Assembly: GCA_030602705.1 (NCBI GenBank)
Contig: JAUVZF010000005.1
Coordinates: forward strand, 2,663 to 66,662
Length of the DNA: 64,000 nucleotides
Direction: 5' to 3'
Source: Planctomycetota bacterium
GTDB taxonomy: Bacteria; Planctomycetota; Phycisphaerae; FEN-1346
Part shown: one piece after another, positions 14,605 to 57,010 of the stretch
How the letters are laid out: the number at the start of each line of letters is the position of its first letter
Position numbering within the stretch: position 1 is the stretch's first letter
Made by a program: the position numbers and the translations under genes
The notes under the pieces: model-generated
The model's database searches: none
What the model saw: only the letters and a program-made list of their open reading frames with translations
Told to the model about the DNA's origin: nothing

Positions 14605-14606
14605 GT

Positions 14607-25933: not shown

Positions 25934-25949
25934 CGATCCATCTCCTCGG

Positions 25950-29627: not shown

Positions 29628-29880
29628 GGATGGCCTCCTTCGGCTCCGGTGTTCTGCGGGCGCGTTCCCATGCGCGGATGTTCTCATCCCACTGGGTGAA
29701 TATGCCGTAGTTGAGCATGGTTTCCATGCCGGCCAGGGCCGCCCGCAGTTTCACGCCCAGCAGCGGAATGCCCGCCACCGAAATGACGACGTCGGCGTCG
29801 ATGATCAGTCCCTTTTCCAGGACGCGATCCAGCAGATCGACGAGTGTCGCTTTCGCCGCGAATTCGGGAACGTCGTTCAT
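29620..29880 (-). CDS. Gas vesicle protein of the GvpA/J/M family (GvpJ-like).
   Basis: ATLVDLLDRVLEKGLIIDADVVISVAGIPLLGVKLRAALAGMETMLNYG matches the GvpA-family core LxDxLDRxLDKGxVIxAD...GIELL. Confidence 0.8.
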   Translation of the reverse strand: MNDVPEFAAKATLVDLLDRVLEKGLIIDADVVISVAGIPLLGVKLRAALAGMETMLNYGIFTQWDENIRAWERARRTPEPKEAIRA

Positions 29881-32625: not shown

Positions 32626-32739
32626 GTTTACCGTCTCCCTTGCCATGAGGTGTTGGCTCAGTTCCAGGCTGACTTGGGCCGGTTTTCATCGGCGCCGCGA
32701 GGCTGCAACGGCCCGCGTGCCGCGTTCGGCCGCGGCGGT

Positions 32740-38696: not shown

Positions 38697-38882
38697 CTAC
38701 TTGGTTGTCCTGGTGGTGAAGTGACGGCCCTTGCGGAAAAGTTTCTTGTGCCATACCAGGTCGCGGCAGATCTGTTCGGCGTAGTCCGGTGAGATTCCCA
38801 TCTGACGTCCGATCGTCGCGGGGGATGCGCTTCCGCCCCCTTTGTTAATCGCCTTGAGTACTTCCTGTTCTCGACTGGTCAT
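38697..38882 (-). CDS. Small wHTH protein of the cluster family.
   Basis: Start at MTSREQEVL after GGAGAAGGGAGG. Motif PATIGRQMGISPDYAEQICRDLVWHKKL. Confidence 0.55.
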   Translation of the reverse strand: MTSREQEVLKAINKGGGSASPATIGRQMGISPDYAEQICRDLVWHKKLFRKGRHFTTRTTK

Positions 38883-38981
38883 CTCAGTCCTCCCTTCTCC
38901 TCGTTCTTGCGGCGCGATGGCGTGCTCGCAGCGACTGGAATCGTGTGCGAGCACGCCTGGCGCCTGTTCGCCACTTGCGGA

Positions 38982-39262: not shown

Positions 39263-41560
39263 TCACCGATTCTCCTCTTCCAGCAGGACTTCCTCCCGTG
39301 GTGCGTCTGACAGACCGTGTCTGAACCGTCGTGGCGGCGGCTTTCTTGGCGGATGCGCCTCAAGAACCGGACGTTGCCATGCACGCTCGTGATGATGGCC
39401 GGCGTGAGTCGGGCAAGGCGGGGCATCGGCCGCGCCGCCGCCGTAGAGTTCGGCGCCCATGCGGTCGAGGGCGTCCGGTCCCCGCACCTCTTGAGGAAAC
39501 TGGCGGACCGCCGTTACGACGCAGCCGATGGACGAGGCGAAGTCGGCGATCTCATCGACGCAAGCGAGTTGCTGGCACCGTTTGGCGGCGCAGAACGCGC
39601 AGTCCGTCGCGGGCGCCAGGAAGTTGCAGACGATGCGTGCTACGGGGATTCCGGCCGCCGTCACCGTCTCGAGCATCCGCTGCATCTCGAGTTTGCCCAT
39701 GGCCTCGGCGATCGTGACGGCGACCAGTTCCGTTTGGGCCGGGTCGGTCAGGGCGGCGTGCATCGTCTTGACGGCGTTGGTTGAGCGCACCATTCGCTCC
39801 GCAAGCGTGGCCAGGTGCTCGACGGGGCGCCTCTGTTGGTACTTGAGGATGGCCCGGTAGGTTACACGGAGCCAATCCTTGATTAGTTCCGGGAAGGCCA
39901 GGAGTTTGAGCATGTGCCCGGTGGGCGCCGGGTCGAGCACGTAGAGGTCGAACCGGTCGGCCTCGGTGAAGTCAAAGAGACGCTCCATCACGAGCACTTC
40001 CTCGACGCCCGGCGGGTAACTCTTGACGTACTCGAGCAGGGTGCCGCGGTCGAACTTGATCCGGTCCAGGTTCATGACGCCGATTTCGTGGCTTTCCCAG
40101 GCCTCGAAGGCGGCGTTGATGTTCTCGACGTACTCGGCACGGAACTTCTCGTAGAGCGCCGCGGCGTCCAGTTCCAGCGCGGTCAGGTTGTCGCGGCCGG
40201 GAACCGCGGTCAGGGAGTCGCCGATCTCCAGGTCGAGCGAGTCTCCGAGCGAATGCGCCGGGTCGGTCGAGACCACGAGAACTCGCTTCTCGGGGTAACG
40301 CCGCGCCAGGCGCAGCGCGGTGCTTGCCGACACGGACGTCTTGCCGACGCCGCCCTTGCCGGCGAAGATGAGGAACCGTTTGCCCGCTTCCACGGCCAGT
40401 TCGCTGGGAGGGGCGATTGAGCCGGACACGCTCACGCGGTTCGGCCCGGCCGGCTGCGGGGGCATCGGCTGCACGGAATCATTCTCGCCGGCCAGGACCT
40501 GGCCGTAGCGCACCAGGGCTTCCTGTCCGCGTATCTCTTCGGGGGAAAGTGGAACCTGGAGGATGCGGCGGGGAGCGAACTGCTCCTGAATCTGCTTCAG
40601 ATACGGCGTTTGCCCTTCCGCCTGCGACCGGCAGAAGGGGCAGTCCGGGTCGGCACGTCGCACGCGGTTGACGATCACGTTGCCGGCGGCAATGCCCTGG
40701 CGGTCGAGCGCCCGGGCGAGGCGCACCGTCTCGGCGACGCCCATCTCCTCGGGGATGGTCACCATGACGAACTCGCATCGCGCGGGGTCGGTGAGGAGTT
40801 TCCCGACAAACTCCATGTGCTTAATCAATTTGCTCAGGAACTGCGGCACTCCCCGTCCGCCCCTTTCCTGGCCGGGAATATTGAACAGACCCAGGCCCTG
40901 CAGGCCGGCCGAGGTCCGGTGATACTTGTTGAACGACCTCTTGAAGAGCGTGACCCAGCGAGCGTATTTTTCGGGCATCGTCAGCAGCCGCAGAGTGTGG
41001 CCCGTCGGCGCGGTGTCGATGACCACCAGGTCGCAGCGTGTGGAGGGGAGCGGATCGTGCGGGATGCCGCGCTGCAAGTACTCCGCCACGGCGGCGAAGA
41101 TCATCAGGTCTTCCATGCCGGGCAGACGGAAGGCGAGGAAATCGCGGATATCCGCCTGGTTGGAGAAGACGGTGCCGCGGGCCATTTGCTTGAGGTGCTT
41201 GCCGTACCTGCGTTTGAAGGTCGCCAGCAGGGAGGGCGGATCGACCTCGACCGCCGAGAGGTTGGGGACACCGCGCACGCGAACGATCTTCGGCCCCACG
41301 GACTGGTCAAGACTGTCGCCGAGCGAGTGGGCCGGATCGGTCGACATGATCAGCACCTGGCGGTCGGGCATGGCTTGGACCAGGCGCAGAGCGGTGGCGG
41401 CCGACGAGGTCGTCTTGCCGGTTCCACCCTTGCCGCCGAAGAACAGCAGTTGCAGAGAAGACGGGGCGCTCAGGAAACTCGGCGCCGCCTGCTTGCCGCC
41501 GCTATCCTGCTGGACAGCCTGTTGCTGTGTGGCTTCGGCTAGTAACGCTTGCGCGCTCAT
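39263..41560 (-). CDS. ArsA/Get3-family ATPase, internally duplicated (second paralog, 765 aa).
   Basis: FFGGKGGTGKTTSSAATALRL / STDPAHSLGDSL / IDTAPTGHTLRLL in half 1, and FAGKGGVGKTSVSASTALRLA / STDPAHSLGDSL / LDPAPTGHMLKLL in half 2. Confidence 0.8.
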   Translation of the reverse strand: MSAQALLAEATQQQAVQQDSGGKQAAPSFLSAPSSLQLLFFGGKGGTGKTTSSAATALRLVQAMPDRQVLIMSTDPAHSLGDSLDQSVGPKIVRVRGVPNLSAVEVDPPSLLATFKRRYGKHLKQMARGTVFSNQADIRDFLAFRLPGMEDLMIFAAVAEYLQRGIPHDPLPSTRCDLVVIDTAPTGHTLRLLTMPEKYARWVTLFKRSFNKYHRTSAGLQGLGLFNIPGQERGGRGVPQFLSKLIKHMEFVGKLLTDPARCEFVMVTIPEEMGVAETVRLARALDRQGIAAGNVIVNRVRRADPDCPFCRSQAEGQTPYLKQIQEQFAPRRILQVPLSPEEIRGQEALVRYGQVLAGENDSVQPMPPQPAGPNRVSVSGSIAPPSELAVEAGKRFLIFAGKGGVGKTSVSASTALRLARRYPEKRVLVVSTDPAHSLGDSLDLEIGDSLTAVPGRDNLTALELDAAALYEKFRAEYVENINAAFEAWESHEIGVMNLDRIKFDRGTLLEYVKSYPPGVEEVLVMERLFDFTEADRFDLYVLDPAPTGHMLKLLAFPELIKDWLRVTYRAILKYQQRRPVEHLATLAERMVRSTNAVKTMHAALTDPAQTELVAVTIAEAMGKLEMQRMLETVTAAGIPVARIVCNFLAPATDCAFCAAKRCQQLACVDEIADFASSIGCVVTAVRQFPQEVRGPDALDRMGAELYGGGAADAPPCPTHAGHHHERAWQRPVLEAHPPRKPPPRRFRHGLSDAPREEVLLEEENR

Positions 41561-42484: not shown

Positions 42485-42619
42485 GATGTGGCCTCCGCAC
42501 AATCCGGCGATCCTCTCCGGCGGGGCATGGCAGGTCCGGCACAGGCCGGTTGGTCAGGCCTGGAGCGGTCCCGCCGTCACGGCCTGTCCGCGCTATGCCA
42601 ACCATCCAGCCGGAGGCGG

Positions 42620-42895
42620 CTACTCTTCGACGAGGGCAACCGCGGTGTCGATGCGCTTCCGCAGTCCGGTCCGCTTGAATCCCGCGACGTTGCCATTGTC
42701 GTCGAGGACGACGTCGTAGGTGGCGAGGATGTCCATGCCGTCGGGCAGTGAGTGCTTCTCGACCACGTCGATCGAGACGCGCCATCCTTCGCCTTCGCGG
42801 TTGGCGGAGAGCGTGCTTCCGAGTTCCAGCCCCGTCAACGAGGCCAACTCGCTACGGGCGGCCTCAACGATGTCAGCCATTCCCATTCCTGCCAT
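42620..42895 (-). CDS. gvpO: Gas vesicle protein GvpO.
   Basis: GEGWRVSIDVVEKHSLPDGMDILATYDVVLDDNGNVAGFKRTGLRKRID matches the GvpO core (..GW.a.vEvvE...vPDtqDilg.Y.v.lDd.G.v.gy.R...Y.R.D). Confidence 0.7.
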   Translation of the reverse strand: MAGMGMADIVEAARSELASLTGLELGSTLSANREGEGWRVSIDVVEKHSLPDGMDILATYDVVLDDNGNVAGFKRTGLRKRIDTAVALVEE

Positions 42896-43190: not shown

Positions 43191-43439
43191 CTAAACGGGG
43201 GCGCCTTCTTCCTTGAGTTTTCGGATGCGTTCGATCTCCTCGAGCAGGTCGGCCTCTCGCCGCTCGTACTCCTCCTCGGAGACCTCGCCTAGTTCGAGGC
43301 GCATCTGGAGTTCGAGCAGTTGCTGTCGGACCGAGTTTTCGTCGGTCATCTCCGCGTACGCGGCTTCCCCGAGCTTCTTGGAGACCCAGACCGGGACCCT
43401 GATTGGCGCGAGCAAGATGTCGTCTAGCACGAAAGCCAT
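43191..43439 (-). CDS. gvpG: Gas vesicle protein GvpG.
   Basis: MAFVLDDILLAPIRVPVWVSKKL...QLLELQMRLELGEVSEEEYERREADLLEEIERIR is the GvpG pattern. Confidence 0.75.
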   Translation of the reverse strand: MAFVLDDILLAPIRVPVWVSKKLGEAAYAEMTDENSVRQQLLELQMRLELGEVSEEEYERREADLLEEIERIRKLKEEGAPV

Positions 43440-43452: not shown

Positions 43453-44205
43453 TCATTCCCAGGTCACCACGACCTCAACGAAGTTCAGGGGGGGAATCGG
43501 GCCGACGTACTTGAGGCGCACCCGGCCGTTCGTTTCGCCCTCCAGCGCCTCGACGCACCCGTCGAACTCCTGCTCGTGCCTGCGTTCCACGAGGAACGAC
43601 GCGTTGAGGATCATGGGGTCGCCGAAGACGTCGTTCACTTTGCGGTCGAACCAATGGCCGTCGAAGCGGCGGAGGATGTGCCTGGCTTCCCTGGCTTTCT
43701 TGCGCTCGAGGGCGTTCTTGACCATCTCTCCAAGGCGGACGCCGTCGGCCGGCGTGACGGCTGTGCGGCTGCTGGCGTGGGCGCGGGCGGCCTTGATGCG
43801 GGGGTTTTCGTCGACGATTTCGGCGAAGATGGCCGGCATGTCGGTCCACAGGACTTTGAGGCCCAGTTCGGCCTTGTCCGCCACCATTTCGAGCAGATCG
43901 CACAACTCGTCGTGTCGGGCGAGCAGGACTTTCTCAACGATCTGGTCCCGATGGTTGGCAATGCAGCCAAAGCGGACCGGCAGCATCGGCCAGCGCGCCA
44001 TCGCCGCCTCCATGACGCGCTGGTGCGCGATCACGCTGGCGCGGGCCACGTCGTAGCGGTCGGCCTTGCAGCGGCTGACAACGGCGGCGATATCGCCGTG
44101 CGGCAGCATCTCGACCGGCTCGCCGTTTCCATCGATGCCGGGCACGTCCAGGACGGCCGGTTCGGCTGTGCCGACGATGGCGTAGATGTAGAATCCCCCT
44201 TCCAT
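43453..44205 (-). CDS. gvpF: Gas vesicle protein GvpF/L family.
   Basis: FYIYAIVGTAEP...AAVVS..., VLPVRFG, and C-terminal YVGPIPPLNF. Confidence 0.8.
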   Translation of the reverse strand: MEGGFYIYAIVGTAEPAVLDVPGIDGNGEPVEMLPHGDIAAVVSRCKADRYDVARASVIAHQRVMEAAMARWPMLPVRFGCIANHRDQIVEKVLLARHDELCDLLEMVADKAELGLKVLWTDMPAIFAEIVDENPRIKAARAHASSRTAVTPADGVRLGEMVKNALERKKAREARHILRRFDGHWFDRKVNDVFGDPMILNASFLVERRHEQEFDGCVEALEGETNGRVRLKYVGPIPPLNFVEVVVTWE

Positions 44206-44207: not shown

Positions 44208-45227
44208 CTAGGGCGCCTCCACCGGTTCGACGAGCAGGACCTCGGGGCGGTCGGTGTCGCGAAGGTCGAGTCCTTGCGGCGGGCAGAAACGCTTGAGGAG
44301 GTCCGCCGCCGCCTTGACGCGTTCGAACTTCTGCGGGAGGTTAGGGTCTGCGGGATCGGTGTCCGGATGAAAGCGGCGCATGGCGGACCGGGCGGCATCC
44401 GCCACCATCTGCGGGGTGATGCGTTCCGCCAAGTCGATCTCGCGCCGGGCCGCATCCAGGTCAGCCACCCGCGCACGATGCAACTGGACCGTGGTGAAAC
44501 TGTACGGCGGCAGTGGGCCGACGATGCGGAAGTTCAGGGCGCCCTGTTCCTGCCGGTCGGCTTCTGCGACCCGGGCTTCGAGCCGGTCACGCCCCTCGGC
44601 ATTAACCAGGAAGGCCGCGTTGATGATCATGGCCTCGTGGCGGGTCTGGTGCCGGACGGTCCGGCGCGCCACCTGTTCCCACTGCGGCAGGATGCGGTCT
44701 TCGAGGGCACGCTTCCTGTCATCGAGGCGGTCCTTGACGAGTTTGCCCAGGCCCAACCGTTCGGCCATCGACCGGCCGGGCGGGAGTTCGGCAATCCGGT
44801 TCTTGTGTTCCACGATGTCTTCTTCGCGGCCTATCTCCCGGAACACCTGCTGGATGTCCGGCCACATGGCCACCACGTCGATTTCGATCAGGCCGTCGAC
44901 TTCGGCGAGCAAAGCCTGCAGGTTGTCGCGGTTGGTCCGGAGCATCTCGGCCACCTGGACCTCGCTGTCAAGCACGGTTCCGAACTTCATAGGCAAGACG
45001 GTATGGCCGGCGTTCATAACCGTCTCAGAAACGAACTGGTGCTGGGCCAGGTGCCTGGCCAGTTCCTCCTTCGGCACCGAGGTGACGTCGCCGTTGCCGG
45101 TGTCGCTGACGACGGCGGCAATGCTGCCGTAGGCGATGCTATGGACGCTGGTCGCCTCGCCACCGACGCCGATCGGCCCGAAATCGGCGGATGCGCCGTC
45201 CGCGATGAATCCGTAGGTGTACTTCAT
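44208..45227 (-). CDS. GvpF/L-family protein fused to a C-terminal J-domain (Hsp70 co-chaperone module).
   Basis: GvpL core (YTYGFIADGA...IAAVVSD...LPMKFGTV...IVGPLPPYSF) followed by RREIDLAERITPQMVADAARSAMRRFHPDTDPADPNLPQKFERVKAAADLLKRF, which contains the J-domain HPD motif. Compare ...AYRKLAMKYHPDRN...KFKEIKEAYEVL. Confidence 0.75.
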   Translation of the reverse strand: MKYTYGFIADGASADFGPIGVGGEATSVHSIAYGSIAAVVSDTGNGDVTSVPKEELARHLAQHQFVSETVMNAGHTVLPMKFGTVLDSEVQVAEMLRTNRDNLQALLAEVDGLIEIDVVAMWPDIQQVFREIGREEDIVEHKNRIAELPPGRSMAERLGLGKLVKDRLDDRKRALEDRILPQWEQVARRTVRHQTRHEAMIINAAFLVNAEGRDRLEARVAEADRQEQGALNFRIVGPLPPYSFTTVQLHRARVADLDAARREIDLAERITPQMVADAARSAMRRFHPDTDPADPNLPQKFERVKAAADLLKRFCPPQGLDLRDTDRPEVLLVEPVEAP

Positions 45228-47419
45228 CAGGGGGCGTCTCCTTTTGCCGGCGGCTCGGCCGATTCGCCGATGACCTCACGCACCGCGGCATCCATATCGG
45301 CCGCCGTAAGGGCCATCTTCGAGAGCGGCAATTCCTTCTTCTCGGCAAGGTGGATGAACCGCCGGATGGCGTTAAGCGCGGCACAGCGGCAGATAGCGGC
45401 AATCCGGGCGCCGCTGGCGTGACCGCAGGCTTTTGCGATCCGCTTCAGGTCCACGTCGTCGGCCAGCGGCTTGCCGCGCATGTGCACCTTGAAGATCTCC
45501 AGTTTCGCGTCCTCGTCCGGAAACGGCAGTTCGATGATGAGGTCGAAACGGCCTTCTCGCAGGAGTGCGGGGTCGAGCATGTCCATGCGGTTCGTGGCCG
45601 CCAGGACAATGACGTCTTTGAGTTCTTCGATGCCGTCCATTTCGCTGAGGAACTGGCTGATGACGCGGTCTGCGGCGCCCTGGGCGGTGCCCCGCCTGGG
45701 CACCAGGGCGTCGATTTCGTCGAAGAACACGATGCAGGGCGCCGCCTGCTTGGCCTTGTGGAAGACCTCTCGCACGCCGCGCTCGCTCTCGCCCACCCAC
45801 TTGGACATAAGTTCCGGCCCTTTGACGGGGATGAAGTTGAGGCTGCTCTCCTTGGCCAGCGCTTTCGCCGCCAGCGTCTTTCCGGTGCCGGGGGCGCCGT
45901 GCATGAGGATGCCCTTGGCTGGCCGGGTCTTGGCGTGCTCGAAGAGTTTGCGGTGCTTGAGCGGCCACTCGACGGCTTCGCGGAGCGACTGCTTGACCTC
46001 CTGGAGGCCGCCGACGTCCGCCCAACCGACGTTGGGCACTTCGACGAAGACCTCGCGCATGACGGACGGCTCGACCTCGCACAGGGCTTCGCGGAAGTTG
46101 TCCATGGTGACCTCAAGCGTCTCGAGCGTCTCGTAGGGTATCTCTTTGAGTTCGAAGTCGATGTCGGGGAAGATGCCGCGCAGCGCTGCCATGGCGGCTT
46201 CGCGGCCGAGGGCCTCGAGGTCGGCGCCGACGTAGCCGTGTGTGATCTCGGCGATCTTGTCGAGGTCAACGTCTTCGGCCAGGGGCATGCCGCGGGTATG
46301 GATCTGGAGGATGTCGGCCCGGCCGTTGCGGTCCGGAATGCCGATCTCGAGTTCCCGGTCGAACCGCCCCGGCCGCCGCAGGGCGGGGTCGACCAGGTTG
46401 GGCAGGTTCGTGGCGCCGATGACGATGATCTGGCCGCGGCTCTTCAGGCCGTCCATCAGGGCGAGCAACTGGGAGACGACGCGTTTTTCGAGTTGCTTCT
46501 CGCCGCCCAACTCCGCGCGCTTCGGCGCGATGGCGTCGATCTCGTCGAGGAACACAATCGCCGGGGCGTGCGCGGAGGCGTCCTCGAAGATCTGGCGCAG
46601 GTGAGCCTCGCTCTCTCCGTAGTACTTGTGCATGATCTCCGGGCCGCTCAGGTGGGTGAAATAGGCGTCGGTCTCGTTGGCCACCGCCCGCGCGATCAGC
46701 GTCTTGCCGCATCCCGGAGGACCGTGAAGAAAGACCCCTTTCGGCGGTTCAATGCCAAGCCGCTCGAAGACCTCGGGGTACTTCAGCGGCAGTTCGATCA
46801 TCTCGCGTACCCGCTGGGTCTCACGCGCCAGCCCTCCGATGTCCTCATAGGTGACCCTTGCGCGAGCCGCGGGTTCGCCGGCCTTGGCTTCGCCGCGCAT
46901 CTCAATCGTGGTGGTCGATTGAATGAGCACGGCGCCCTTGGGCACGGTGGTAACGACCTCGAAATCCTGTGTCCGCGAGCCGAACATCGTCGCGCGCACG
47001 GAATCCCCCGCCGTAAGCGGCAGGCTCTCCAAAAGCGTTCCGATGTAACGCATGTCCCGCTTGCCGCGCAGGCCGCGCATCTCTGTCAGCGGCGCCAGGA
47101 CGATCTTCCTGGCGGGGGCGGCGTCGGCCTTCTCGATCTGGACGTGCTCGTCGATCCCGGCGCCCGCATTGCCGCGAAGGATGCCGTCGATGCGGATCAT
47201 GTCGGTGCCGCGATCCTCGACGTACGTCGGCATGACCTTCGCCGGCGTCGCACGCTTGCCGCGCACCCAGACAACGTCGCCGACCTTCACACCGAGCGGA
47301 TCGAACAGTTTCGGGTCGAACCGTGCGAGGCCGCGGCCGACGTCCTTGGACGCGGCTTCGGCCACCTTCAGCGAGAGCGTTGGGGCCTTCTTCTCTTTCT
47401 TCTTCGCGCTCGGAGTCAT
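45227..47419 (-). CDS. Cdc48/VCP-like AAA+ ATPase (N-domain, D1 and D2).
   Basis: Cdc48-type N-domain ([22 protein letters not shown]...[12 protein letters not shown]), two Walker A sites ([15 protein letters not shown]; [15 protein letters not shown]), and second-region-of-homology motifs. Start taken at MTPSAKKK. Confidence 0.85.
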
Positions 47420-47535
47420 GACGACTTTCCTGTTGCTCTCCCGCCGCTCGCCCGGTAGGCGCACGCCGCGGATGGGTATGCCGGCGCCGTCGCTTGCGTT
47501 CCTCGAGCCCGCCGCCTCAGGAGACCGGCAGTAAC

Positions 47536-48126
47536 CTATTCGCCTTTCTTCTTGAGGACGATCTCGAGGATGCCGTTCTCGTAGGAGGAGGTGACGTTCT
47601 CCTCGTCGACGACTGCGGGGAGCAGGACTTCCTTCTGGTACTTCCTCTTGCCCTCGGCCGAGAGCGTGAGCATGTCGCCCTTGACCTCCACGTGGATGTC
47701 GGCTTCCTGGATTCCCGGCAGTTCCGCGATGGCCCGGATGGTGTCGCCTTCCTCGAAGACGTCGACGATCGGCTCGCGCATTTCCTCGACGACCGGCCCC
47801 TTGGGGGTCTTCTTGATGTTGCCGAACGTCTCGACCTTCGGCTTGCCTCCGGCCATGGTGCGGACCGTGAAGCCGTAAACGCCTTTGATGTCCCTTCCGC
47901 GCCGCACGCCGGGAGGGATACCCCCGACGCGGAACTCGCCGGTCTTGCTCAGTTCCTCGCCCTTCTCGGCGAGTTCGGTGGCCTTGTCCACGAGGCTGCT
48001 GAGACCATTGATGAGCCCGCCAAGGCCAAGGCCCTTGAAGATGCCGCCAAGGTCAACCACGGGCGTGGCATCTTCCTCTGCGGCTTCCTCTTTCTTGTCC
48101 TGGTCTTTCTCTTCTTTTTTCGCCAT
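47536..48126 (-). CDS. Hsp20/alpha-crystallin-family small heat-shock protein (GvpH-like position).
   Basis: Start at [11 protein letters not shown] segment ...[34 protein letters not shown]...[13 protein letters not shown]. Confidence 0.75.
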
Positions 48127-48200
48127 GGTTCGATTCCTCTCTCGGTTTGTCGGCCCGGCGCCGCTTCCGATTGCGGAGGGTCTGCCCCGCGGCGCCTTGT

Positions 48201-48551
48201 TCACTCGTCGGACACGTTGGCGGCGGTCGCCATTTCCTCGATCCGGTCGGCCCGCTCCTCGACGATGGCGGTGATGCGGCGTGCTCTGGCAACCCGGCCT
48301 CTCAGGTTCTTCACCACTCCGCGCCACATGTCCGCCAGGATCGCTTGCGACTTCGGTGTCAACCGGTAAGCGCGCCTGGGCCTTTTGCCCGAATCGTCCA
48401 CGCATTCGGTCAGAAGGTCGCGGTTGACCATCCCCGCGCAGAGGTACTTCGTGTACTCAACGGAGTTCTCCAGGTGTTTGGCAACCTGGCGGAGGGTGAC
48501 CGTGTCGGTGTCGTCGAACAGGAGCAGGATGTGGTATTCGTTGGGCGTCAT
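48201..48551 (-). CDS. Small wHTH protein of the cluster family.
   Basis: LRQVAKHLENSVEYTKYLCAGMVNRDLL. Confidence 0.5.
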   Translation of the reverse strand: MTPNEYHILLLFDDTDTVTLRQVAKHLENSVEYTKYLCAGMVNRDLLTECVDDSGKRPRRAYRLTPKSQAILADMWRGVVKNLRGRVARARRITAIVEERADRIEEMATAANVSDE

Positions 48552-48563
48552 CCAGGCGGCCCC

Positions 48564-49469
48564 TTAACAATGCTTCTCGATCAGTGTGATGAGCCCTTTT
48601 TCCAGGCCGGGATCGGCATCTCCGTCCCCCCCGCCCGCGAGCACGTCGAGACACGTTTGCCGGAATGCCACGTCGGAAGCCGACATTCTCATGCCGTTCG
48701 TGCTCACGAGTCTGGCGATCATGATGCTGGCCCGGACGGTGGGAACCGTGCCGGTGTCCGTTTCCCTGGCGCCGCGCACAACGTCCACGATGGCGCGGGC
48801 CGTCTCGTTCGCCACGCCGCCCTTGGCGGCGGCGATGGCGATCTCGCTGTCGCGATCGTAGTGGCCGAGCCGGATGGTGATCATGCGGTCCAGCAGCGCA
48901 TCCTGTGCCCTGTGGATCCCGGCGTACTCCTCGGGGTTGCTGGTGAAGATGGCGCAGAACTCCGGTGCCACGCGCAGGTACCCGTCCTCTCCCCGGGCGG
49001 CCGGCAGGTCGAGAATCTTCTCCTCCAGGATGGGCAGCAGGACGTTGTTGGCCTCGGCCTTCGAGCGTGTGAACTCGTCGTAGAGCAGCGTGTAGCCGTT
49101 TTTGCAGGCCGCGGTCACGCGGTTGTCGACCCATTCGGGCGAGACGCTCTCTTCCGACTTGAGGACCGTGTGGATGAAGTTATCGACGAGTTTCTTTCGC
49201 CGGTATCCGTACTGGCCGCCGATCAGGTCCGAGGTGCCGAACTCCTCGTCGCCGTGGATCAGCATCACGGGGCGGCCGATCTGGCCCGCGACGTACATGG
49301 CGATCGTCGTTTTGCCCGTGCCGGCCGGCCCGCTCAGATGGACGGGGAAGCCTGCCGCCAAGTACCTCATGGCCCGTTCCACCACGTTCTGCACCGCGGG
49401 CGTGACGACGAAGCCGGGCTGCTCCTTGTCGATGAGGATCGGTGAGACCTCTGAATGTGTTGCGGTCAT
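48564..49469 (-). CDS. gvpN: Gas vesicle AAA+ ATPase GvpN (CbbQ/NirQ/MoxR-like).
   Basis: FPVHLSGPAGTGKTTIAMYVAGQIGRPVMLIHGDEEF...LLYDEFTRS...AIFTSNPEEY. Start at MTATHSEV after GGAGG. Confidence 0.85.
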   Translation of the reverse strand: MTATHSEVSPILIDKEQPGFVVTPAVQNVVERAMRYLAAGFPVHLSGPAGTGKTTIAMYVAGQIGRPVMLIHGDEEFGTSDLIGGQYGYRRKKLVDNFIHTVLKSEESVSPEWVDNRVTAACKNGYTLLYDEFTRSKAEANNVLLPILEEKILDLPAARGEDGYLRVAPEFCAIFTSNPEEYAGIHRAQDALLDRMITIRLGHYDRDSEIAIAAAKGGVANETARAIVDVVRGARETDTGTVPTVRASIMIARLVSTNGMRMSASDVAFRQTCLDVLAGGGDGDADPGLEKGLITLIEKHC

Positions 49470-49594
49470 GGTCTGCCTCCGGGTCTGGAGAGGCGCCTTC
49501 CTCGGGAAGCCAGGCGAACCGCCGGTGCCATCTCTATGGTTTTGATGGGGCACATGTGCGGGTCCCCGAACGGCTTCCGAGGAAGGCTCCCTCT

Positions 49595-50515
49595 CTAATG
49601 ACAGGGCTCACAACGGATGTTCTCCAGTGCAGGGTCGGCGCTGACCATGTACACGATGGCCGGCGCCTGCCCGGTTCGTTCCAGCCTGCGTCGTCTGACC
49701 TCTTCCCAGGGCTCGACGCCCGTGGCGATGCCGCCGTCGCTCATGTCTCTGTGGCCGACGACGCGGCCGACCCGGCGGAGCGCATTGTGCAAGGCCTGGG
49801 GTGTGCGGCCGTGGGTGCGCAGGGCTGCCTGGAGGCGGTCCACAATGGATTCGCGTCGCGATGCCTCGTAGCGCGCACCCTCCAGCGGCACGCAGTCCGT
49901 CAGGTGGAGGCCGGCGTCCACGCTGGCCCGGAACAGGACCGGGCGTCCAGCCCGGTTCTTGCGTCTCAGCCGCCTTTCGTCCCAAGGCTCGAATACGATG
50001 TGACACCCGTCCGAGTCCCAGTGGACGTGGTCGACCTCGCCCACAGGGCGTATCGACTCGGCGAGGAGGTCCGCGGCACGGGCGGGGCGTTCTTCGGGCG
50101 GCAGTTCGCTAAGACGGGGCCCGAAGGCGGACAGCGCCTCCTGAAGCGAACCGCTCAGGCGCGCCGCCCGCCCCAGCGCAAGGGCCCTCATTCTCTTCTT
50201 CCTCTCGTTTCCCTGCTGGTACTCGGCCGCCTCTCGTTCAAGCCGGGCCACCCGCTGTCTTGCGAGCCTTGTCCCGAGCGTTCCCCTGGCCCTCGCCCAT
50301 TCCCGCGCCATGATCTTTCGGGCAAGGCGGTTCAGGCCGGATGCGGAAAGGCTCTTCGGCTTTTTCTTCTTGCGGAAGGCGGCGCCGGCGGGCGTTGCGG
50401 GCAGTTCCCTCCACCCGGCGGAATCCGGCTCGGAGGGCCACAAAGGGGCCAATTTCTTCGCAGGATCGCCGCCCTTCTTGAAGGCAATCGTGGAACCCGA
50501 CGGTCCATCGGTCAT
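49595..50515 (-). CDS. Hypothetical protein (306 aa).
   Basis: ORF with high GC3 and no recognisable motif. Confidence 0.45.
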   Translation of the reverse strand: MTDGPSGSTIAFKKGGDPAKKLAPLWPSEPDSAGWRELPATPAGAAFRKKKKPKSLSASGLNRLARKIMAREWARARGTLGTRLARQRVARLEREAAEYQQGNERKKRMRALALGRAARLSGSLQEALSAFGPRLSELPPEERPARAADLLAESIRPVGEVDHVHWDSDGCHIVFEPWDERRLRRKNRAGRPVLFRASVDAGLHLTDCVPLEGARYEASRRESIVDRLQAALRTHGRTPQALHNALRRVGRVVGHRDMSDGGIATGVEPWEEVRRRRLERTGQAPAIVYMVSADPALENIRCEPCH

Positions 50516-50529
50516 GCCAGGTCCTTTCC

Positions 50530-50868
50530 TCAGTATGGCAGGTCCATCTTCTTCATGGATCGGGGGAGTTTCTTGGCTTTGCCGGCACCCGGCTTAGGCG
50601 TCCCATGCGCGTTTGCGGGCAATTGGGCCTCGAGCACCTGGCCCAGTTTTTGCTGGATCCTCTGCATGTCTTTCAGCATAAGTTTTTGATCCAGGGCGAC
50701 GAACTCCTTGCGGGTCTCCATGTTTTCACATTCGCGTTCGTGGCGTTCCTGCCTCTTCTGCTGAAGGTACATGTCGAGGAACTCTTGCCCGACTTGCTTG
50801 GGCATAGCCCGCAGTCGCATCTTCTGCGAGGTCCTCAGGTTGTTGATCCCCGTCATTTTCTGTTGCAC
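50530..50868 (-). CDS. Hypothetical coiled-coil protein (112 aa).
   Basis: ORF only. Confidence 0.4.
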   Translation of the reverse strand: MQQKMTGINNLRTSQKMRLRAMPKQVGQEFLDMYLQQKRQERHERECENMETRKEFVALDQKLMLKDMQRIQQKLGQVLEAQLPANAHGTPKPGAGKAKKLPRSMKKMDLPY

Positions 50869-50882
50869 GAGGGGCCTCCCTT

Positions 50883-51059
50883 CTATCTCAGCCGGCCCTT
50901 CTTGCGTGCGTGAACGGTGATGAACCGGCCCGGCCCGGGGCCGCAGGCCTTGATCTCGACGGTGGCTCCGGGCTTGAGGCCCGTCTCGCGCGCGATGTTC
51001 TTGGCGATTCGGATCTTGCCTTCTTCGTCCACCTTCGCGAACGCTCTCATCAGCGCCAT
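50883..51059 (-). CDS. Unlisted small AbrB/SpoVT/MazE-like protein (58 aa), MALMRAFAKVDEEGKIRIAKNIARETGLKPGATVEIKACGPGPGRFITVHARKKGRLR.
   Basis: Hand-translated. The KVDEEGKIRI swapped-hairpin motif is paralogous to the N-terminus of 34646..35101. Sits 3 nt downstream of gvpN-2. Confidence 0.45.
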   Translation of the reverse strand: MALMRAFAKVDEEGKIRIAKNIARETGLKPGATVEIKACGPGPGRFITVHARKKGRLR

Positions 51060-51062
51060 GGT

Positions 51063-52088
51063 TTACTCTCCTTCCGTTGCGCCCGCCATTTCGAGGACAG
51101 GCTGCTCAGACTCAGGCCCGAGGCCGGGCTGTTGCGGCTCGGGCGGCCCTTCGGCCGGCATCGGCCGCGAGGCGCAGTGCTTGTCGATCAGATTCGAGAT
51201 CACCTCCGCCGCCCTGGAGTGGTGCGCGCGGTCGCCCACGCGGCTGGTCTCGGAGGACAGGATGTCGATGCAGGTCTGCCTGAAGACGGTGTTGTCGCGG
51301 GCGACGACGCCCTTGCGAATCCTGAGCGTCTTGGCAATCATCATGGCGCCGCGCACCGTCGGGGCGAACTCGATCGCGTCGGACTCGCGCAGGGCGCGCA
51401 CGATCCGCACGATGCTCGTGGCGTCGGCCTCGGACAGGCCCGACTTGGCCACCGTAATCTGGATCTCGGTCTCCTCGTCGTAGTGGTCCAGGTCGAGGGT
51501 GATCATGCGGTCCCTGAGGGCGTCCTGGCTGCGGTGGACGCCGGCGTATTCCTCCGGGTTGCTGGTGAAGATGGCGGTGAAGTCCGGGTCGACCCGCAGG
51601 TAGTTCCCGTCACCCTCGCGTGCGGCGGGCAGGTCCATCATGCGTTCCTGGAGGACCGAGAGCAGGACGTTGTTGGCTTCGGGCCGCGAGCGCGTGAACT
51701 CGTCGTAGATGAGCGTAAAGCCGTGCTTGCAGGCGACCGTCAGGCGGTTGTCCACCCAGCGGCGCTGCATGTCCTCTTCGGTCTTCAGGACCGAGTGGAT
51801 GAAGTTGTCCACGACCTTTCGGATGCGGTACCCGTACTCGCCGCCCACCAGGTCGGAGGTCGAGAACTCCTCGTCGCCGTGGATCATCACGACCGGCCGG
51901 CCGATCTTGGCCGCAACGTGCATCGCCAGCGTGGTCTTGCCGGTGCCGGAGACGCCCCGGAAGTGAATGGGGAACCCGGCAGCGACGTACCCGAGTGCCC
52001 GCGCCGTGATGTCCTTGACCGCCTTGGTCTCGACGAAGTTCGGCAAGGGGCGCGGTTCCAGAACCGTCGTCATCTCCTCGATTGGCAT
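51063..52088 (-). CDS. gvpN: Gas vesicle AAA+ ATPase GvpN (second paralog).
   Basis: FPIHFRGVSGTGKTTLAMHVAAKIGRPVVMIHGDEEF...LIYDEFTRS...AIFTSNPEEY. Confidence 0.85.
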   Translation of the reverse strand: MPIEEMTTVLEPRPLPNFVETKAVKDITARALGYVAAGFPIHFRGVSGTGKTTLAMHVAAKIGRPVVMIHGDEEFSTSDLVGGEYGYRIRKVVDNFIHSVLKTEEDMQRRWVDNRLTVACKHGFTLIYDEFTRSRPEANNVLLSVLQERMMDLPAAREGDGNYLRVDPDFTAIFTSNPEEYAGVHRSQDALRDRMITLDLDHYDEETEIQITVAKSGLSEADATSIVRIVRALRESDAIEFAPTVRGAMMIAKTLRIRKGVVARDNTVFRQTCIDILSSETSRVGDRAHHSRAAEVISNLIDKHCASRPMPAEGPPEPQQPGLGPESEQPVLEMAGATEGE

Positions 52089-52200: not shown

Positions 52201-52788
52201 TCACTCGTTCGCCTTGGCCTTTTTCTTCTTCTTCGCCCTCTTGTTTTTGTTCGCCTTCTTGTTCCTATTCGCTTTCTTGCGGGCCGCTGCTTTGGGGGCA
52301 GCGACCGTCGTCTTCCGGTCGGCTGAGGACGTCCAACGCATCGAGGTCGAACTGGGAGCGGCGGCCGTCGTCTTAGGCCTGGGTACGTCTCGCGGGGCCC
52401 CTTGCTCGATGCCCTCCGGGTGCAGCGCTGCGTGCTCCTTGCTCACAACGCCCGTGCCGCCACAGTCGGTGCAGGTCAGGTAGTACCCGTGCACGTGGCC
52501 TTTGCCGTCACAGGAAGGACACTTGACGGCGTCCTTGGGCACCGTGACCATGCCCTTGCCCCTGCATACCATGCAGGTGATGCGTTTGTTTCGTTCGACG
52601 CCCGTGCCGCCGCAGAAGGCGCACTCGATGGCCGGCTTGGTGAGGCTCACCTTGCCGCGCCCGCCGCACACCTGGCACTTCGAGAGTTTTGACATTATTT
52701 CAAAGGGGTCCTTCCCGGTTCCTCCGCAGAAGGCACACGTCGTGGTCAACCTTCCGGCGGTCCTGGTTAACACTTTTATCTGTGCCAT
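52201..52788 (-). CDS. DnaJ-type zinc-finger repeat protein with a Lys/Ala-rich basic tail.
   Basis: CAFCGGTGKD/CQVCGGRGK/CAFCGGTGV/CMVCRGKGM/CPSCDGKGH/CTDCGGTGV, and C-terminus ...KKANRNKKANKNKRAKKKKKAKANE. Confidence 0.65.
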   Translation of the reverse strand: MAQIKVLTRTAGRLTTTCAFCGGTGKDPFEIMSKLSKCQVCGGRGKVSLTKPAIECAFCGGTGVERNKRITCMVCRGKGMVTVPKDAVKCPSCDGKGHVHGYYLTCTDCGGTGVVSKEHAALHPEGIEQGAPRDVPRPKTTAAAPSSTSMRWTSSADRKTTVAAPKAAARKKANRNKKANKNKRAKKKKKAKANE

Positions 52789-54281: not shown

Positions 54282-54488
54282 TTACGCCTCTTCGGGAAGA
54301 AGCCCCACGGCCTCGGCGTACTTCAGGAACGTCTCGACGCCGGCGATGACGATCCGCGCCTCGATGGCCAGGAGTTCGATCCCGACGAGCGACACCCGCA
54401 CCCAGGCATCGATGACGATGCCCTTGTCGAGGATGCGGTCCACGACTTCGACCAGACTGGAACTCGCGATTGCTTTCTCGACAGCCAT
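54282..54488 (-). CDS. gvpA: Major gas vesicle structural protein GvpA.
   Basis: [63 protein letters not shown] is near-identical to the GvpA consensus. Start at MAVEK. Confidence 0.92.
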
Positions 54489-55059: not shown

Positions 55060-55078
55060 GGGCAAACGCCGTGCCATC
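55060..55078 (-). promoter_or_regulatory. Consensus sigma-54 (-24/-12) promoter, TGGCAC-GGCGT-TTGC, oriented toward gvpA.
   Basis: Plus-strand GCAAACGCCGTGCCA at 55062-55076 is the reverse complement of TGGCACGGCGTTTGC. A sigma-54 activator gene sits immediately upstream. Confidence 0.5.
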
Positions 55079-55247: not shown

Positions 55248-56291
55248 TTATGCCCGAGAGATGCCGTAATCCCTTGCCTTGGTGAGGAGGGTTTTGTAGT
55301 CGATCCGGAGGAGCCGAGCGGCCTTGGCCTTGTTTCCGCCGGTCCGCCTGAGGACCTCGGCGAGGATCTGCCGTTCGACGCGGGCCACGACTCGCCGCAC
55401 GACTTCCTTGAAGGAAGCGCTGCCCCCGATCACCTCGTTGATGTCGGGCGGCGCGGCATCGGCCTCCAGGGGCGCCCCGGAGATGTCCAGGTGGTCGGGT
55501 TCGATGCGGGTATCGGCCATGAGGACGCCCCGGCGGACGACGTTGCGGAGTTCGCGGACGTTGCCCGGCCACGGGTAGTTCAGGAGCCGCTCGATGGCGG
55601 CCTCGGAGAGCCCGCGGACGTCCTTTTCGAGTTCGCGGTTCGTCAGTTCGACAAACCGGTTCGCTAGTGGGATGATGTCGGCCCGGCGCCGGCGCAGCGG
55701 CGGCACCTCGATGTGGAACTCGTTCAGGCGGTGATACAGGTCGCGGCGAAAGCCGTCGGCCCGAACGAGCGAGCCGACATCGCGATTGGTGGCGGCGATG
55801 ACGCGGATGTCCACCTCGATGCCGTCTGTGCTGCCGACGCGCCAGATGCGCCTCTCCTGGAGCGCGCGGAGGAGCCTTGGCTGGAGGTCAAGGGGCAGGT
55901 TCGAGACCTCATCGAGGAAGAGCGTCCCGCCGGAGGCCAGTTCGAACTTGCCCGGCCGTGCCCGGTCCGCCCCCGTAAAGGCGCCCTTCTCGTGCCCGAA
56001 CAGTTCGCTCTCGATGAGGGTCTCGGGTATCGAGCCGCAGTCCACCGCGATGAACGGCGCCGAGGCGCGGCGGCTGATGCGGTGAATCGCCCGGGCGACG
56101 ACTTCCTTTCCGGCGCCGGTCTCGCCGGTGATGAGCACCGTAAAGGACGTGGGGGCCACCCGCTCGACGGTCGCGAAGACCGCCTGCATCGCCTCGCTTG
56201 ATCCGATGACGTCGCGCGTGGAGATGCCGCTGTCCAGGCAGGGGGCTTCTGCGACGTTCTCCTGGATGGTGCCGCTCGTTGCCGTAGTCAT
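55248..56291 (-). CDS. Sigma-54-dependent transcriptional activator, PspF-like (AAA+ domain plus C-terminal HTH, no receiver or sensor domain).
   Basis: [33 protein letters not shown] (GAFTGA motif), and C-terminal [22 protein letters not shown]. Start taken at MTTATSGT; the upstream part of the listed ORF is probably non-coding. Confidence 0.85.
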
Positions 56292-57010
56292 GAGGAGCCC
56301 TTTCCGTTGCTCGCCATGAGATTGTGGCCGGCTCTCGACGTACGCAATCTGCCGTGGGAGCAGGCGACGAACACGGGACAGGCGCGGCGTGAGGGCGGAC
56401 AGAGCACCACCGCTGAAGAACGGCCGGACCTCTGGTCCAGGCATGCGCTCAACATTCTCTCCCATCCCAGCAGCGCCAACTAGGACGGTTATCGGACGTT
56501 CTCCGCCGACGGCTTGAGGAATTCTTGCACGGATTCGGAGTCTGTGAGACGGAGCCGCACCAGGCGTCTTGGGGAAGACGAATCAGGGCGGGCACGTTCT
56601 TCGCATCTCCGGCGGCGCTGCCGACGAGACACACGAACTCTCTCGCCCCGGCGCCGGAGGCGTCTGTTCCAACAAGGACCGAACGCGAGAACCTAGCACA
56701 CGCCCTGCCCGCCTGTCCGAAGTCCGGACCCGTTCCGGGGAAGACCGCCGGGTGGATGGACTCCAGGAAGATAGAGTGGTGGTATCGGCGGGCGAGGCGC
56801 CTCGCCCGGGCCTGCCGACGGCCAGATACCCCAGGACGCCCAGCACGAGGACGGCACGATGTGGGTCTGGGACTTCGAGGTCACGCTGCTGTAGCCGCAT
56901 CACACATCTGCCTTCGCCCCGGTCATAGCCATGGCTGGGGCGCTCTCCGGGCCTTCGGGCCAGCCTTGACCGTTGCAGCAGAGAATCGGCCAACGACTTC
57001 CATCTGAGGC

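Follow-up and report, generated by a model that had tools for sequence, protein, structure and literature searches.

A clade of Cdc48-family AAA+ ATPases associated with gas vesicle gene clusters, and a second GvpN, in a Planctomycetota locus

Gas vesicle (gvp) clusters with tandem-domain ArsA homologues and hsp20 among gvpN/L/F/G/J/K/O have been described in Chlorobi, Bacteroidetes, Geobacter and Acidobacteria (Castillo & Saier 2010, PMC2963123). The locus we have studied belongs to the same cluster type, and it also contains a cdc48 gene. Cdc48 is unmentioned in PMC2963123, and the reviews consulted list the well-studied gvp clusters of Halobacterium, Anabaena, B. megaterium and Serratia without it, so it is not universally required. 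Several properties of gas vesicle proteins are relevant here. Without chaperones the A-J-M proteins form aggregates, GvpF binds monomeric GvpA, and in haloarchaea GvpL is an interaction hub which binds nearly all accessory Gvps (PMC9501494). In E. coli, GvpA aggregation causes proteotoxic stress (PMC12848028). Haloarchaeal GvpH is an accessory protein which is reported to prevent GvpM aggregation (PMC9501494). Its functional counterpart in our locus is the Hsp20 which precedes cdc48, but the reviews consulted report no AAA+ unfoldase partner for GvpH.

The window, that is, the whole stretch of 64,000 nt which was analysed, contains a single long gas vesicle operon region driven by sigma-54, with the order gvpA...gvpN1...gvpN2, hsp20, cdc48, gvpL-J, gvpF, gvpG, gvpO...arsA. 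Coordinates written as x..y are on the minus strand. The first gene codes for the major shell protein GvpA (54282..54488, PF00741, start assigned), and an exact sigma-54 -24/-12 consensus, TGGCAC-N5-TTGC, is found upstream of it (55062..55076). A preliminary description of this DNA had counted three AAA+ machines, two GvpN paralogs and a Cdc48-like protein. The minus strand does contain all three genes, at the coordinates first given or very close to them, but the region has a fourth AAA+ protein, a sigma-54-dependent transcriptional activator with a regulatory role (55248..56465, PF00158 with 234 bits plus HTH_8). Other genes of the cluster code for GvpF (43453..44205, PF06386, 202 bits), GvpG (43191..43439, PF05120), GvpO (42620..42895, PF05800) and two ArsA/Get3-like ATPases with tandem P-loop domains, at 39263..41560 and, as a second copy, at 35877-37928 (PF02374, 426 and 423 bits). 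A 116 amino acid winged-helix-like protein, with only weak MarR-like and dimerisation matches, lies between GvpN2 and Hsp20 (48201..48551); its position is kept in three of the loci surveyed below (L001, L002, L007). Many small winged helix-turn-helix-like proteins are encoded in the cluster.

The Cdc48 protein (45227..47419) has 730 amino acids and the architecture N (double-psi barrel and beta-clam)-D1-D2. Its open reading frame spans 45227-47464, and ATG 47419, preceded by the Shine-Dalgarno-like AGGAAAG, is the likely true start: The resulting product is identical to a database protein (P0001). Pfam detects CDC48_N (84.1 bits, cutoff 35.1) and CDC48_2 (43.4 bits, cutoff 22.4), and both AAA (298 bits) and AAA_lid_3 match twice, while the NCBIfam model TIGR01243, "CDC48 family AAA ATPase", gives 950 bits (cutoff 802.65). 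The N-domain claimed in the preliminary description is therefore present. FtsH, PAN, ClpX and ClpA were also considered and rejected, all four models scoring below their own cutoffs, ClpA and ClpX far below.

The closest solved structure is that of VAT, the VCP-like ATPase of Thermoplasma acidophilum (5g4g, 744 bits), which aligns with residues 16-686 and covers N, D1 and D2. Both proteins have aromatic pore loops, K[F/Y]YG in D1 and KWVG in D2 of Cdc48, where VAT has KYYG and KWVG. Across the Cdc48s of the gvp clade, both rings have Walker A/B motifs and arginine fingers with at least 90% conservation. Judging from these intact motifs, the protein appears to be a catalytically complete, VAT-like double-ring AAA+ ATPase. 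It is also homologous over N, D1 and D2 to eukaryotic p97/VCP/Cdc48 (637 bits), and the segregase concept is the same: The N-domain binds adaptors and subunits are pulled from stable assemblies. Nevertheless, p97 differs in its ubiquitin and UBX/SHP adaptors and in its long C-terminal tail, none of which applies here, and its D1 pore loop is non-aromatic.

Several features separate this protein from VAT and archaeal Cdc48. It is bacterial, has its own N-domain residues, found as clade-specific positions in gvp-linked Cdc48s, and its gene lies inside gas vesicle operons beside those for Hsp20 and GvpL/F, instead of being a general proteostasis gene. The C-terminal HbYX motif for proteasome docking is absent in the gvp clade; the archaeal protein of locus L039 ends in LYR. 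Archaeal Cdc48/VAT and actinobacterial Cpa work with the 20S proteasome, and by analogy the gvp protein might deliver substrates to a protease or switch off a regulator and so time vesicle formation, with an outcome like that of haloarchaeal GvpD lowering GvpE. The small winged helix-turn-helix-like proteins of the cluster would fit such a role. However, the missing HbYX tail speaks against it, no protease was recognised in the cluster ORFs examined, and most of the host phyla are not known to have proteasomes. We consider this explanation extremely unlikely.

The distribution of related proteins is informative. When the genomic context of homologues 68-84% identical to our Cdc48 was looked up, a gvp cluster was found in five cases out of five. 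We have extended the survey of Cdc48 relatives to 80 GTDB species loci. All those with a relative of at least 56% identity and a usable flank have gvpA, gvpN, gvpF/L and hsp20. The hosts include Planctomycetota, Desulfobacteraceae, Alpha- and Betaproteobacteria, Acidobacteriota, Bacillota and others. At 53% identity or less, most relatives lack gvp neighbours; these are about 35 loci from Moorella, Thermoanaerobacteraceae and archaea. In a neighbour-joining tree, distance-based and without support values, gvp-linked sequences group together, with two non-gvp sequences (L039 and L043) near the base of their clade. A search in the reverse direction, starting from GvpN, finds Cdc48 in 16 of 26 metagenome loci of at least 9 kb. 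A cultured example is plasmid p1 of Methylocella tundrae T4, where the PGAP label is only "CDC48 family AAA ATPase".

These sequence comparisons delimit a widespread bacterial Cdc48 clade, which is almost confined to gvp clusters. Since Cdc48 turns up in gvp clusters from both search directions, it is a dedicated part of a common cluster type and not a housekeeping gene. In fact, close relatives in gvp-free surroundings, which would point to a housekeeping role, were not seen; gvp clusters across many phyla were found instead. The preliminary description had treated Cdc48 as a peculiarity of one locus, a view which has to be replaced by that of a large, conserved, gvp-dedicated clade. In the searchable literature we have found no description of this clade, nor any paper linking Cdc48 to gas vesicles.

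The position of the gene inside these clusters is also conserved. Of 59 loci, 37 have Hsp20 as the upstream neighbour of Cdc48 and 10 have ArsA, while the commonest downstream neighbour is GvpL/F (38 of 51 loci), so that the core order is typically Hsp20-(ArsA)-Cdc48-GvpL/F. The alphaproteobacterial clusters L017-L023, where Hsp20 is not next to Cdc48, are an exception. As a component of gvp clusters, Cdc48 is as consistent as Hsp20 and more consistent than ArsA. In our locus, the gene directly upstream of cdc48 codes for an Hsp20/alpha-crystallin small heat-shock protein of 196 amino acids from ATG 48126 (47536..48126; PF00011, PF17886; NF041800, 143 bits, cutoff 140).

An overlapping Hsp20-Cdc48 pair without gvp genes is found in Natrinema thermotolerans, so the pair might serve proteostasis in general and merely travel with the cluster or buffer GvpA toxicity without specific Gvp recognition. 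Bacillota often have Cdc48s without gvp genes, and so do plasmids of rhizobia and haloarchaea, which agrees with such a general role. On the other hand, a distinct clade tied to gvp clusters in at least eight phyla, the conserved position beside gvpL/F, the clade-specific N-domain residues and the probable translational coupling of the gene make this very improbable.

This coupling is suggested by the junction with the next gene, whose overlap at 45225-45229 had already been pointed out. The minus strand reads ...GCC CCC TGATG AAG, where the cdc48 TGA (45229-45227) and the gvpL ATG (45227-45225) have one base in common, and a Shine-Dalgarno sequence for gvpL, AAAGGAG, is found within cdc48, 10 nt upstream of the start. 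End and start coordinates are likewise shared between cdc48 and the next gene in L001, L002 and L006. Translation of gvpL is thus predicted to be coupled to that of cdc48. The gaps between gvpL and gvpF (2 nt) and between gvpF and gvpG (13 nt) are short, and no terminator signal exceeds the chance level, which implies that cdc48 is co-expressed with assembly factors.

The protein encoded downstream of the junction (44208..45227, PF06386, 186 bits) belongs to the GvpL/F family and had been described as a GvpL-J fusion. Its C-terminal region has the HPD motif of a J domain and its orthologues in L003 and L005 give confident PF00226 matches, but its own DnaJ score (19.1 bits) is under the Pfam cutoff of 27.8. 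The presumed partner of this J domain is the Hsp70 of the cluster (27852..29687, PF00012, 581 bits). Contrary to the preliminary description, it is not adjacent to Cdc48: Both belong to the same cluster, but they are about 15.5 kb apart. Hsp70 genes are also present in the gvp clusters L005, L008, L014, L026, L059, L068 and L069.

We propose, with about even confidence, that Cdc48 is a stand-alone unfoldase/disaggregase which keeps aggregation-prone GvpA-family proteins assembly-competent, together with Hsp20, GvpL-J/Hsp70 and GvpF/L adaptors. ATP-driven Cdc48 would act on gas vesicle proteins without a partner protease. The Hsp20 holdase, and perhaps the Get3-like ArsA too, would capture the very hydrophobic, aggregation-prone subunits of the GvpA/J/M families. 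GvpL/F-family proteins, which in haloarchaea bind GvpA-family proteins and serve as an assembly hub, would hand over clients or off-pathway assemblies to the N-domain of Cdc48, a putative adaptor role suggested by their adjacency. The J domain fused to GvpL would recruit Hsp70, and Cdc48 would then thread and release subunits and so keep or make them ready for insertion into the growing shell. The proposed logic is that of the sHsp-Hsp70-ClpB bi-chaperone system, with Cdc48 replacing ClpB. As in the ClpB/Hsp104 system, an sHsp holdase, an Hsp70 with a J protein and a double-ring AAA+ motor would work together, here co-encoded. Nevertheless, Cdc48 belongs to another family, without Clp_N or a coiled-coil M-domain, and the likeness would be functional only.

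The idea that GvpA-family assemblies are remodelled, checked for quality or taken apart had been put forward before; it seems reasonable and is strengthened by the Hsp20-Cdc48-GvpL/F arrangement. Gene order is compatible both with quality control during assembly and with vesicle disassembly or recycling. The latter is the main rival: Cdc48 might pull GvpA out of vesicles which are collapsed or unwanted, or out of the vesicle tips, so that an extremely stable shell could be actively turned over and buoyancy lost fast. The segregase-type build of the protein, with its N-domain and aromatic pore loops, and its dedication to gvp clusters agree with this possibility, and the Hsp20 and Hsp70/J of the cluster could take up the extracted hydrophobic subunits. 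However, separate regulation would be more plausible for such a factor, while cdc48 is apparently coupled to gvpL/F/G, in the same sigma-54 operon as gvpA, with no protease or regulator of its own alongside. We regard disassembly as unlikely; that cdc48 is so closely linked with assembly genes in one operon is a mild argument for quality control during assembly.

GvpL could also be a substrate instead of an adaptor: Cdc48 would take the accessory nucleation complex, in which F, G, J, K and M join the GvpL hub, off nascent vesicles or remodel it. A few scaffold proteins could then seed many vesicles. Such recycling would account for the frequency of GvpL/F as downstream neighbour and for the coupling observed here, and the haloarchaeal GvpL interactions mentioned above also fit. 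Nevertheless, it leaves the equally strong Hsp20 linkage unexplained, and subunit turnover in the complex has already been proposed for GvpN (PMC9501494), so we find it quite unlikely.

The duplication of GvpN, a MoxR/CbbQ-like AAA+ protein, is confirmed. GvpN1 (341 amino acids, 51063..52088) and GvpN2 (301 amino acids, 48564..49469) score 347 and 350 bits with TIGR02640, above its cutoff of 266.8. The mechanical ORF of GvpN2 is 48564-49553, with a likely start at ATG 49469. The two proteins are 54% identical over 301 amino acids, and both retain every column which is invariant in nine diverse GvpNs, including the Walker A GxxGxGKTT and the Walker B DE. In a tree, GvpN1 clusters with the single GvpN of other gvp clusters, as expected for an orthologue, whereas GvpN2 is part of a separate orthologous clade with L001, L002, L003, L008, L011 and L068. 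From these comparisons, GvpN2 appears to be an old paralog confined to clusters of the Planctomycetota and Desulfobacteraceae types. In the literature we have come across no report of GvpN paralogs in a single cluster.

Unlike the usual GvpN, this second copy has its own upstream partner gene in the same operon. It codes for u306, a conserved protein of 306 amino acids with an internal repeat, EPW[DE]E.R.RR (49595..50515), and is always found directly upstream of GvpN2-type genes. GvpN1 would be the canonical shell-growth ATPase, while GvpN2 with u306 may be a subfunctionalised paralog. Between GvpN1 and u306 there is a protein of 112 amino acids (50530..50868), which matches no Pfam or NCBIfam family and has homologues at the same position in L001 and L002.

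The gene at positions 45227–47419 of the minus strand (cdc48) codes for a 730 amino acid protein whose sequence and domains place it in the Cdc48/VAT family. Both subdomains of the N-domain exceed their Pfam gathering scores: the double-psi beta-barrel (PF02359, residues 32–114, 84.1 bits, cutoff 35.1) and the beta-clam (PF02933, residues 137–193, 43.4 bits, cutoff 22.4). Two PF00004 and two PF17862 (lid) stretches are also found. The first AAA module, D1, has the motifs GPPGCGKT and IVFLDEID, and the arginines of the second region of homology are present; the second module, D2, has GAPGTGKT, IVFFDEID and LREGRFD. The full-length model TIGR01243 covers residues 31–713 with 950.2 bits (cutoff 802.65). 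Among solved structures, the closest is that of VAT, an archaeal unfoldase (744 bits, residues 16–686), ahead of p97 with 637 bits. The 60 best PDB matches correspond to VAT, p97, Cdc48, AFG2 and NVL, with no mycobacterial chain (Cpa/Msm0858) among them.

Other AAA+ families fail the cutoffs of their models. FtsH (TIGR01241) reaches 473 bits of the 600 required, its match being limited to the AAA modules; FtsH has a transmembrane N-terminus and a C-terminal M41 zinc protease, and here the whole 730 amino acids are accounted for by N, D1 and D2. ClpX (28–34 bits, cutoffs 359–371) and ClpA (32 bits, cutoff 993) are far below, and the PAN model is also below its cutoff. Two high-scoring homologues, P0008 (1007 amino acids) and P0010 (993 amino acids), are about 270 amino acids longer and have extra AAA/Vps4_C-type Pfam matches. 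They may be three-module or fused variants of the gvp-type Cdc48.

The Walker A and B motifs and the arginine fingers of both rings are kept throughout the gvp clade, that is, the Cdc48 relatives encoded inside gas vesicle (gvp) gene clusters. Pore loop 1 reads K[F/Y]YG for D1 and KWVG for D2, and the aligned residues of VAT are KYYG and KWVG. A threading unfoldase would be expected to have this arrangement. With its intact motifs and aromatic pore loops, the protein is a candidate hexameric ATP-dependent unfoldase or segregase. The HbYX motif for docking to the 20S proteasome is absent from its C-terminus (...PPAKGDAP), and tails are variable across the gvp clade, whereas an archaeal homologue (L039) retains the motif, ending in ...EELYR. 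No protease gene was seen among the cluster ORFs examined. The N-domain is the part which has diverged most from relatives outside gvp clusters (27–38% identity, compared to 50–64% for D1 and D2), and a descriptive comparison finds several clade-specific residues in it.

The relevant genes are all on the minus strand, in a region with about 65% GC. Identities were assigned with family HMMs, starts and spacing separately. In the direction of transcription, the cluster begins with a sigma-54 activator (55248–56465), followed by an exact sigma-54 promoter, TGGCAC-N5-TTGC (55062–55076), and gvpA (54282–54488). Then come a repeat protein of about 400 amino acids (52892–54088), a DnaJ-type zinc-finger protein (52201–52788), gvpN1 (51063–52088), a gene without family (50530–50868), a second one coding for a 306 amino acid protein (u306, 49595–50515), gvpN2 (48564–49469), a small gene resembling a winged helix (48201–48551), hsp20 (47536–48126), cdc48, and a gvpL gene fused to a J domain (44208–45227). 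They are followed by gvpF, gvpG, a zinc-ribbon gene and gvpO, a second zinc-finger protein (41579–42502) and two tandem-domain ArsA/Get3-like ATPases (39263–41560 and 35877–37928). Further along, at lower coordinates, we find gvpJ, gvpK, a third gvpF/L, a gvpS/M-like gene and Hsp70. Besides gvpN, the gvp set of the window is gvpA, J, K, S/M-like, F/L (three copies), G and O. Intergenic spacing goes from −1 to 194 nt, and a search for terminators in the cluster gave no signal above chance.

This arrangement agrees in most respects with the preliminary description, which reported two GvpN paralogs and a Cdc48-like N-D1-D2 protein overlapping the start of gvpL. The observation is confirmed by the domains and HMM scores of Cdc48, by the GvpN model scores and by the overlap itself: the stop codon of cdc48 and the start codon of gvpL have one base in common (TGATG), and the 3' end of cdc48 includes a Shine-Dalgarno sequence. 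All genes are present, but the likely starts of cdc48 and gvpN2 lie downstream of the mechanical ORF starts. The three AAA+ machines are accompanied by a fourth AAA+ protein, the sigma-54 activator. The J domain of GvpL is below threshold in this copy, but it has the HPD motif and is detected with confidence in orthologues. Hsp70, which had been described as adjacent to the unfoldase, is actually 15.5 kb away.

Both GvpNs belong to the GvpN family. They are 54% identical and exceed the equivalog model TIGR02640 (350.3 and 347.2 bits, cutoff 266.8). An alignment including both has invariant residues G30, G33, G35, K36, T37, T38, D114, E115, N124, N125, R179 and R231. A neighbour-joining tree, without support values, separates two orthologous groups. 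GvpN1 is placed with the single GvpN of most clusters, while GvpN2 is grouped with second copies, which are confined to Planctomycetota-like (L001, L002) and Desulfobacteraceae loci (L003, L008, L011, L068). In the loci screened, a u306 homologue precedes every GvpN2-type gene. The two orthologous groups and this linkage indicate that the duplication is old and maintained, both copies having all the invariant catalytic residues; subfunctionalisation is the natural reading. We found no description in the open literature of GvpN paralogs inside one cluster. As for u306, a Pfam/NCBIfam search gave no assignment. It contains an internal repeat (EPW[DE]E.R.RR), and its AF2 model is reasonably confident (pLDDT 78.5), although a structural search with it gave no convincing relative.

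A protein database search with Cdc48 gives one identical sequence, a handful with 81–86% identity and, below them, many sequences spread continuously around 65–70%. Five homologues (68–84% identical) were looked up in their genomic context: all five are in gvp clusters with the same core order. A scan of GTDB species genomes gave 80 Cdc48 loci, which were screened by tblastn with the Gvp proteins of the window, a method which may miss divergent genes. All loci with at least 56% Cdc48 identity and more than a few kb of flank carry gvpA, gvpN, gvpF/L and hsp20. They are found in Planctomycetota (including Brocadiaceae and Phycisphaeraceae), Desulfobacteraceae, Syntrophaceae, Aerophobetes, Thalassospiraceae, Hyphomicrobiales, Burkholderiales, Gallionella, Rhodoferax, Acidobacteriota, Dethiobacter and Desulfotomaculum. 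Among named relatives, an uncultured Planctomycetota MAG comes closest (86% Cdc48 identity). In about 35 loci at or below 53% identity (Moorella, Thermoanaerobacteraceae, Syntrophomonadaceae, archaea), gvp genes are absent, with one weak exception (L056). The thresholds (about 54–56%) were set empirically, and at about 50–55% the boundary is not sharp: L165 (54.8%) and L056 (about 50%) are linked to gvp genes, L039 and L043 (51–52%) are not. In a neighbour-joining distance tree, also without support values, gvp-linked Cdc48s form one large group, apart from a Bacillota group without gvp genes; two Cdc48s not linked to gvp genes are found on long branches near its base.

A search of JGI metagenome contigs with the GvpN alignment avoids selection on Cdc48 itself: 16 of the 26 GvpN loci of at least 9 kb contain a Cdc48 gene (57–65% identity). 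A cultured example (L165) is plasmid p1 of Methylocella tundrae T4 (NZ_CP139088.1, 138.5–151.5 kb). Its cluster has a sigma-54 regulator, gvpA, gvpN, gvpF/L, gvpG, gvpJ, hsp20 and a Cdc48 gene, labelled by PGAP merely as "CDC48 family AAA ATPase". In 62 non-redundant loci, the Cdc48 gene is directly preceded by Hsp20 in 37 of 59 cases and by ArsA in 10 of 59, and it is directly followed by a GvpL/F-family gene in 38 of 51. Taken together, the context look-ups, GTDB loci, tree, GvpN-based sampling, cultured example and neighbour counts make it very probable that a common type of gvp cluster has this Cdc48 as a component which is both conserved and dedicated to it. The preliminary description had considered a conserved housekeeping gene as an alternative; close relatives are found in gvp clusters, which argues against a bystander. 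It is also quite improbable that Cdc48 is a generic stress module.

M. tundrae is a methanotroph, and its plasmid-borne gvp cluster is complete. A plasmid of Methylosinus sp. C49 (NZ_AP022334.1) has a Cdc48 gene at 53.7% identity. In a plasmid of Natrinema thermotolerans (L166, CP031304.1, 354393–356902), an Hsp20 gene overlaps the Cdc48 gene by 4 nt, and no gvp genes are found within 8 kb. To judge from this locus, the small heat shock protein and Cdc48 form an independent module in haloarchaea, which suggests that a pre-existing module was recruited into gvp clusters. Many metagenome loci have the order Hsp20-ArsA-Cdc48 (L090, L093, L094, L096, L097, L107, L118), and the Hsp20 of the window also matches the Pfam entry "HSP20-like domain found in ArsA"; both features hint at an ArsA-Hsp20-Cdc48 functional unit.

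Gas vesicle proteins GvpA, GvpJ and GvpM aggregate without chaperones; monomeric GvpA is bound by GvpF, and GvpH prevents the aggregation of GvpM (PMC9501494). In E. coli, GvpA aggregation is proteotoxic unless assembly factors are expressed first (PMC12848028). Given these data and the gene set of the cluster, the conserved Hsp20-Cdc48-GvpL/F triad, the J domain fused to GvpL, Hsp70 and the Get3-like ArsA look like a dedicated proteostasis network. Cdc48 would be its threading motor, as ClpB is in the sHsp-Hsp70-ClpB system, and would pull GvpA-family subunits out of holdase complexes or off-pathway assemblies for insertion into the shell, with GvpL/F proteins as putative adaptors to its N-domain. 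GvpL is the hub of accessory proteins (PMC9501494), and Cdc48 might instead recycle a scaffold centred on it, which we consider unlikely. A regulatory unfoldase is very improbable. Cdc48 might also serve for vesicle disassembly or recycling, a rather unlikely role. The predicted co-transcription and translational coupling of cdc48 with assembly genes speak mildly for action in assembly, and against a disassembly factor with its own regulation.

Castillo and Saier (2010, PMC2963123) noted ArsA and Hsp20 in such clusters, and hsp20 beside gvp genes was noted in the Hakuba actinobacterium study. Cdc48 is mentioned neither in a 2022 gas vesicle review nor in a genome-mining study of 15 clusters. 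In the open literature we found no link between Cdc48 and gas vesicles, nor a deletion or expression study of such a Cdc48; the genes are visible in public annotations and may have been noticed before. What seems to be new is the context: a bacterial Cdc48 clade dedicated to gvp clusters, in which the Hsp20 and GvpL/F neighbours are fixed. This Cdc48 is apparently missing from the model clusters (Halobacterium, Anabaena, B. megaterium, Serratia). On the other hand, most GvpN neighbourhoods in the environmental loci sampled have it, with Hsp20 and often ArsA and Hsp70/J components.

Apart from GvpN, itself poorly understood, we know of no step in gas vesicle assembly for which an energy-dependent mechanism is defined. 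If Cdc48 is a dedicated unfoldase, many bacteria would rely on a specialised network of chaperones to handle the shell protein, which is amyloid-like and proteotoxic. Substrate-trap mutants could then reveal the true client and assembly intermediates, Cdc48 would be a candidate for active vesicle turnover, and these genes might help recalcitrant clusters work as acoustic reporter genes. Bacterial Cdc48 homologues, for which few roles are established outside actinobacteria, would gain a defined physiological context. A tentative extension is that gvp-clade Cdc48, with Hsp20 and GvpL/F, is a hitherto unrecognised core factor in the type of bacterial gvp cluster that is commonest in the environment. 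It might be an unfoldase essential for assembly, and heterologous clusters might often fail in part because it is left out or does not work; or it might be the first known enzyme for ATP-driven shell disassembly. A defined, non-proteasomal and organelle-specific client would also be a first for a bacterial Cdc48.

Several other genes of the cluster deserve a comment. At least five proteins (52201–52788, 41579–42502, 31591–32646, 23876–24385 and 18978–19682, all on the minus strand) have DnaJ-type CXXCXGXG zinc-finger repeats and no J domain. Similar genes recur in related gvp clusters, and they may be client-binding holdase modules. A winged-helix-like module of about 60 amino acids, with no Pfam assignment, appears in stand-alone small ORFs (37933–38262, 38259–38687, 38697–38954, 48201–48551) and at the ends of 41579–42502, 31591–32646, 22666–23487 and 18349–18930, including fusions to zinc-finger proteins. 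The repeat protein which follows gvpA (52892–54088) has tandem helical repeats of about 45 amino acids (…AEADATVKDLAQQNVAL…DKARAQEM…QFHKENVDLK…); it occupies the usual position of gvpC and does not match any GvpC family. Two B12-binding radical SAM enzymes (20495–21901 and 25950–27308, minus strand) are found among the gvp-associated genes, the second adjoining a TPR protein (25019–25933); such enzymes are not mentioned in the gas vesicle reviews examined. The product of 33061–33753 (minus strand) is rich in proline, with many PYKPVP/KDYTPxPLK repeats and a C-terminal zinc-ribbon-like CxxC...CxxC.

A second exact match to TGGCAC-N5-TTGC is found at the far end of the cluster (18960–18974, minus strand), upstream of the ORF at 18349–18930. 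The two consensus matches suggest that at least two transcription units are under sigma-54 control. GC content is 58–63% from 8000 to 27000, compared to 65–70% elsewhere. Inside this stretch, a 944 amino acid ORF (11770–14604) resembles a DNA methyltransferase or restriction-modification gene. Both features point to a segment bordering the gvp cluster which is possibly mosaic or horizontally acquired.
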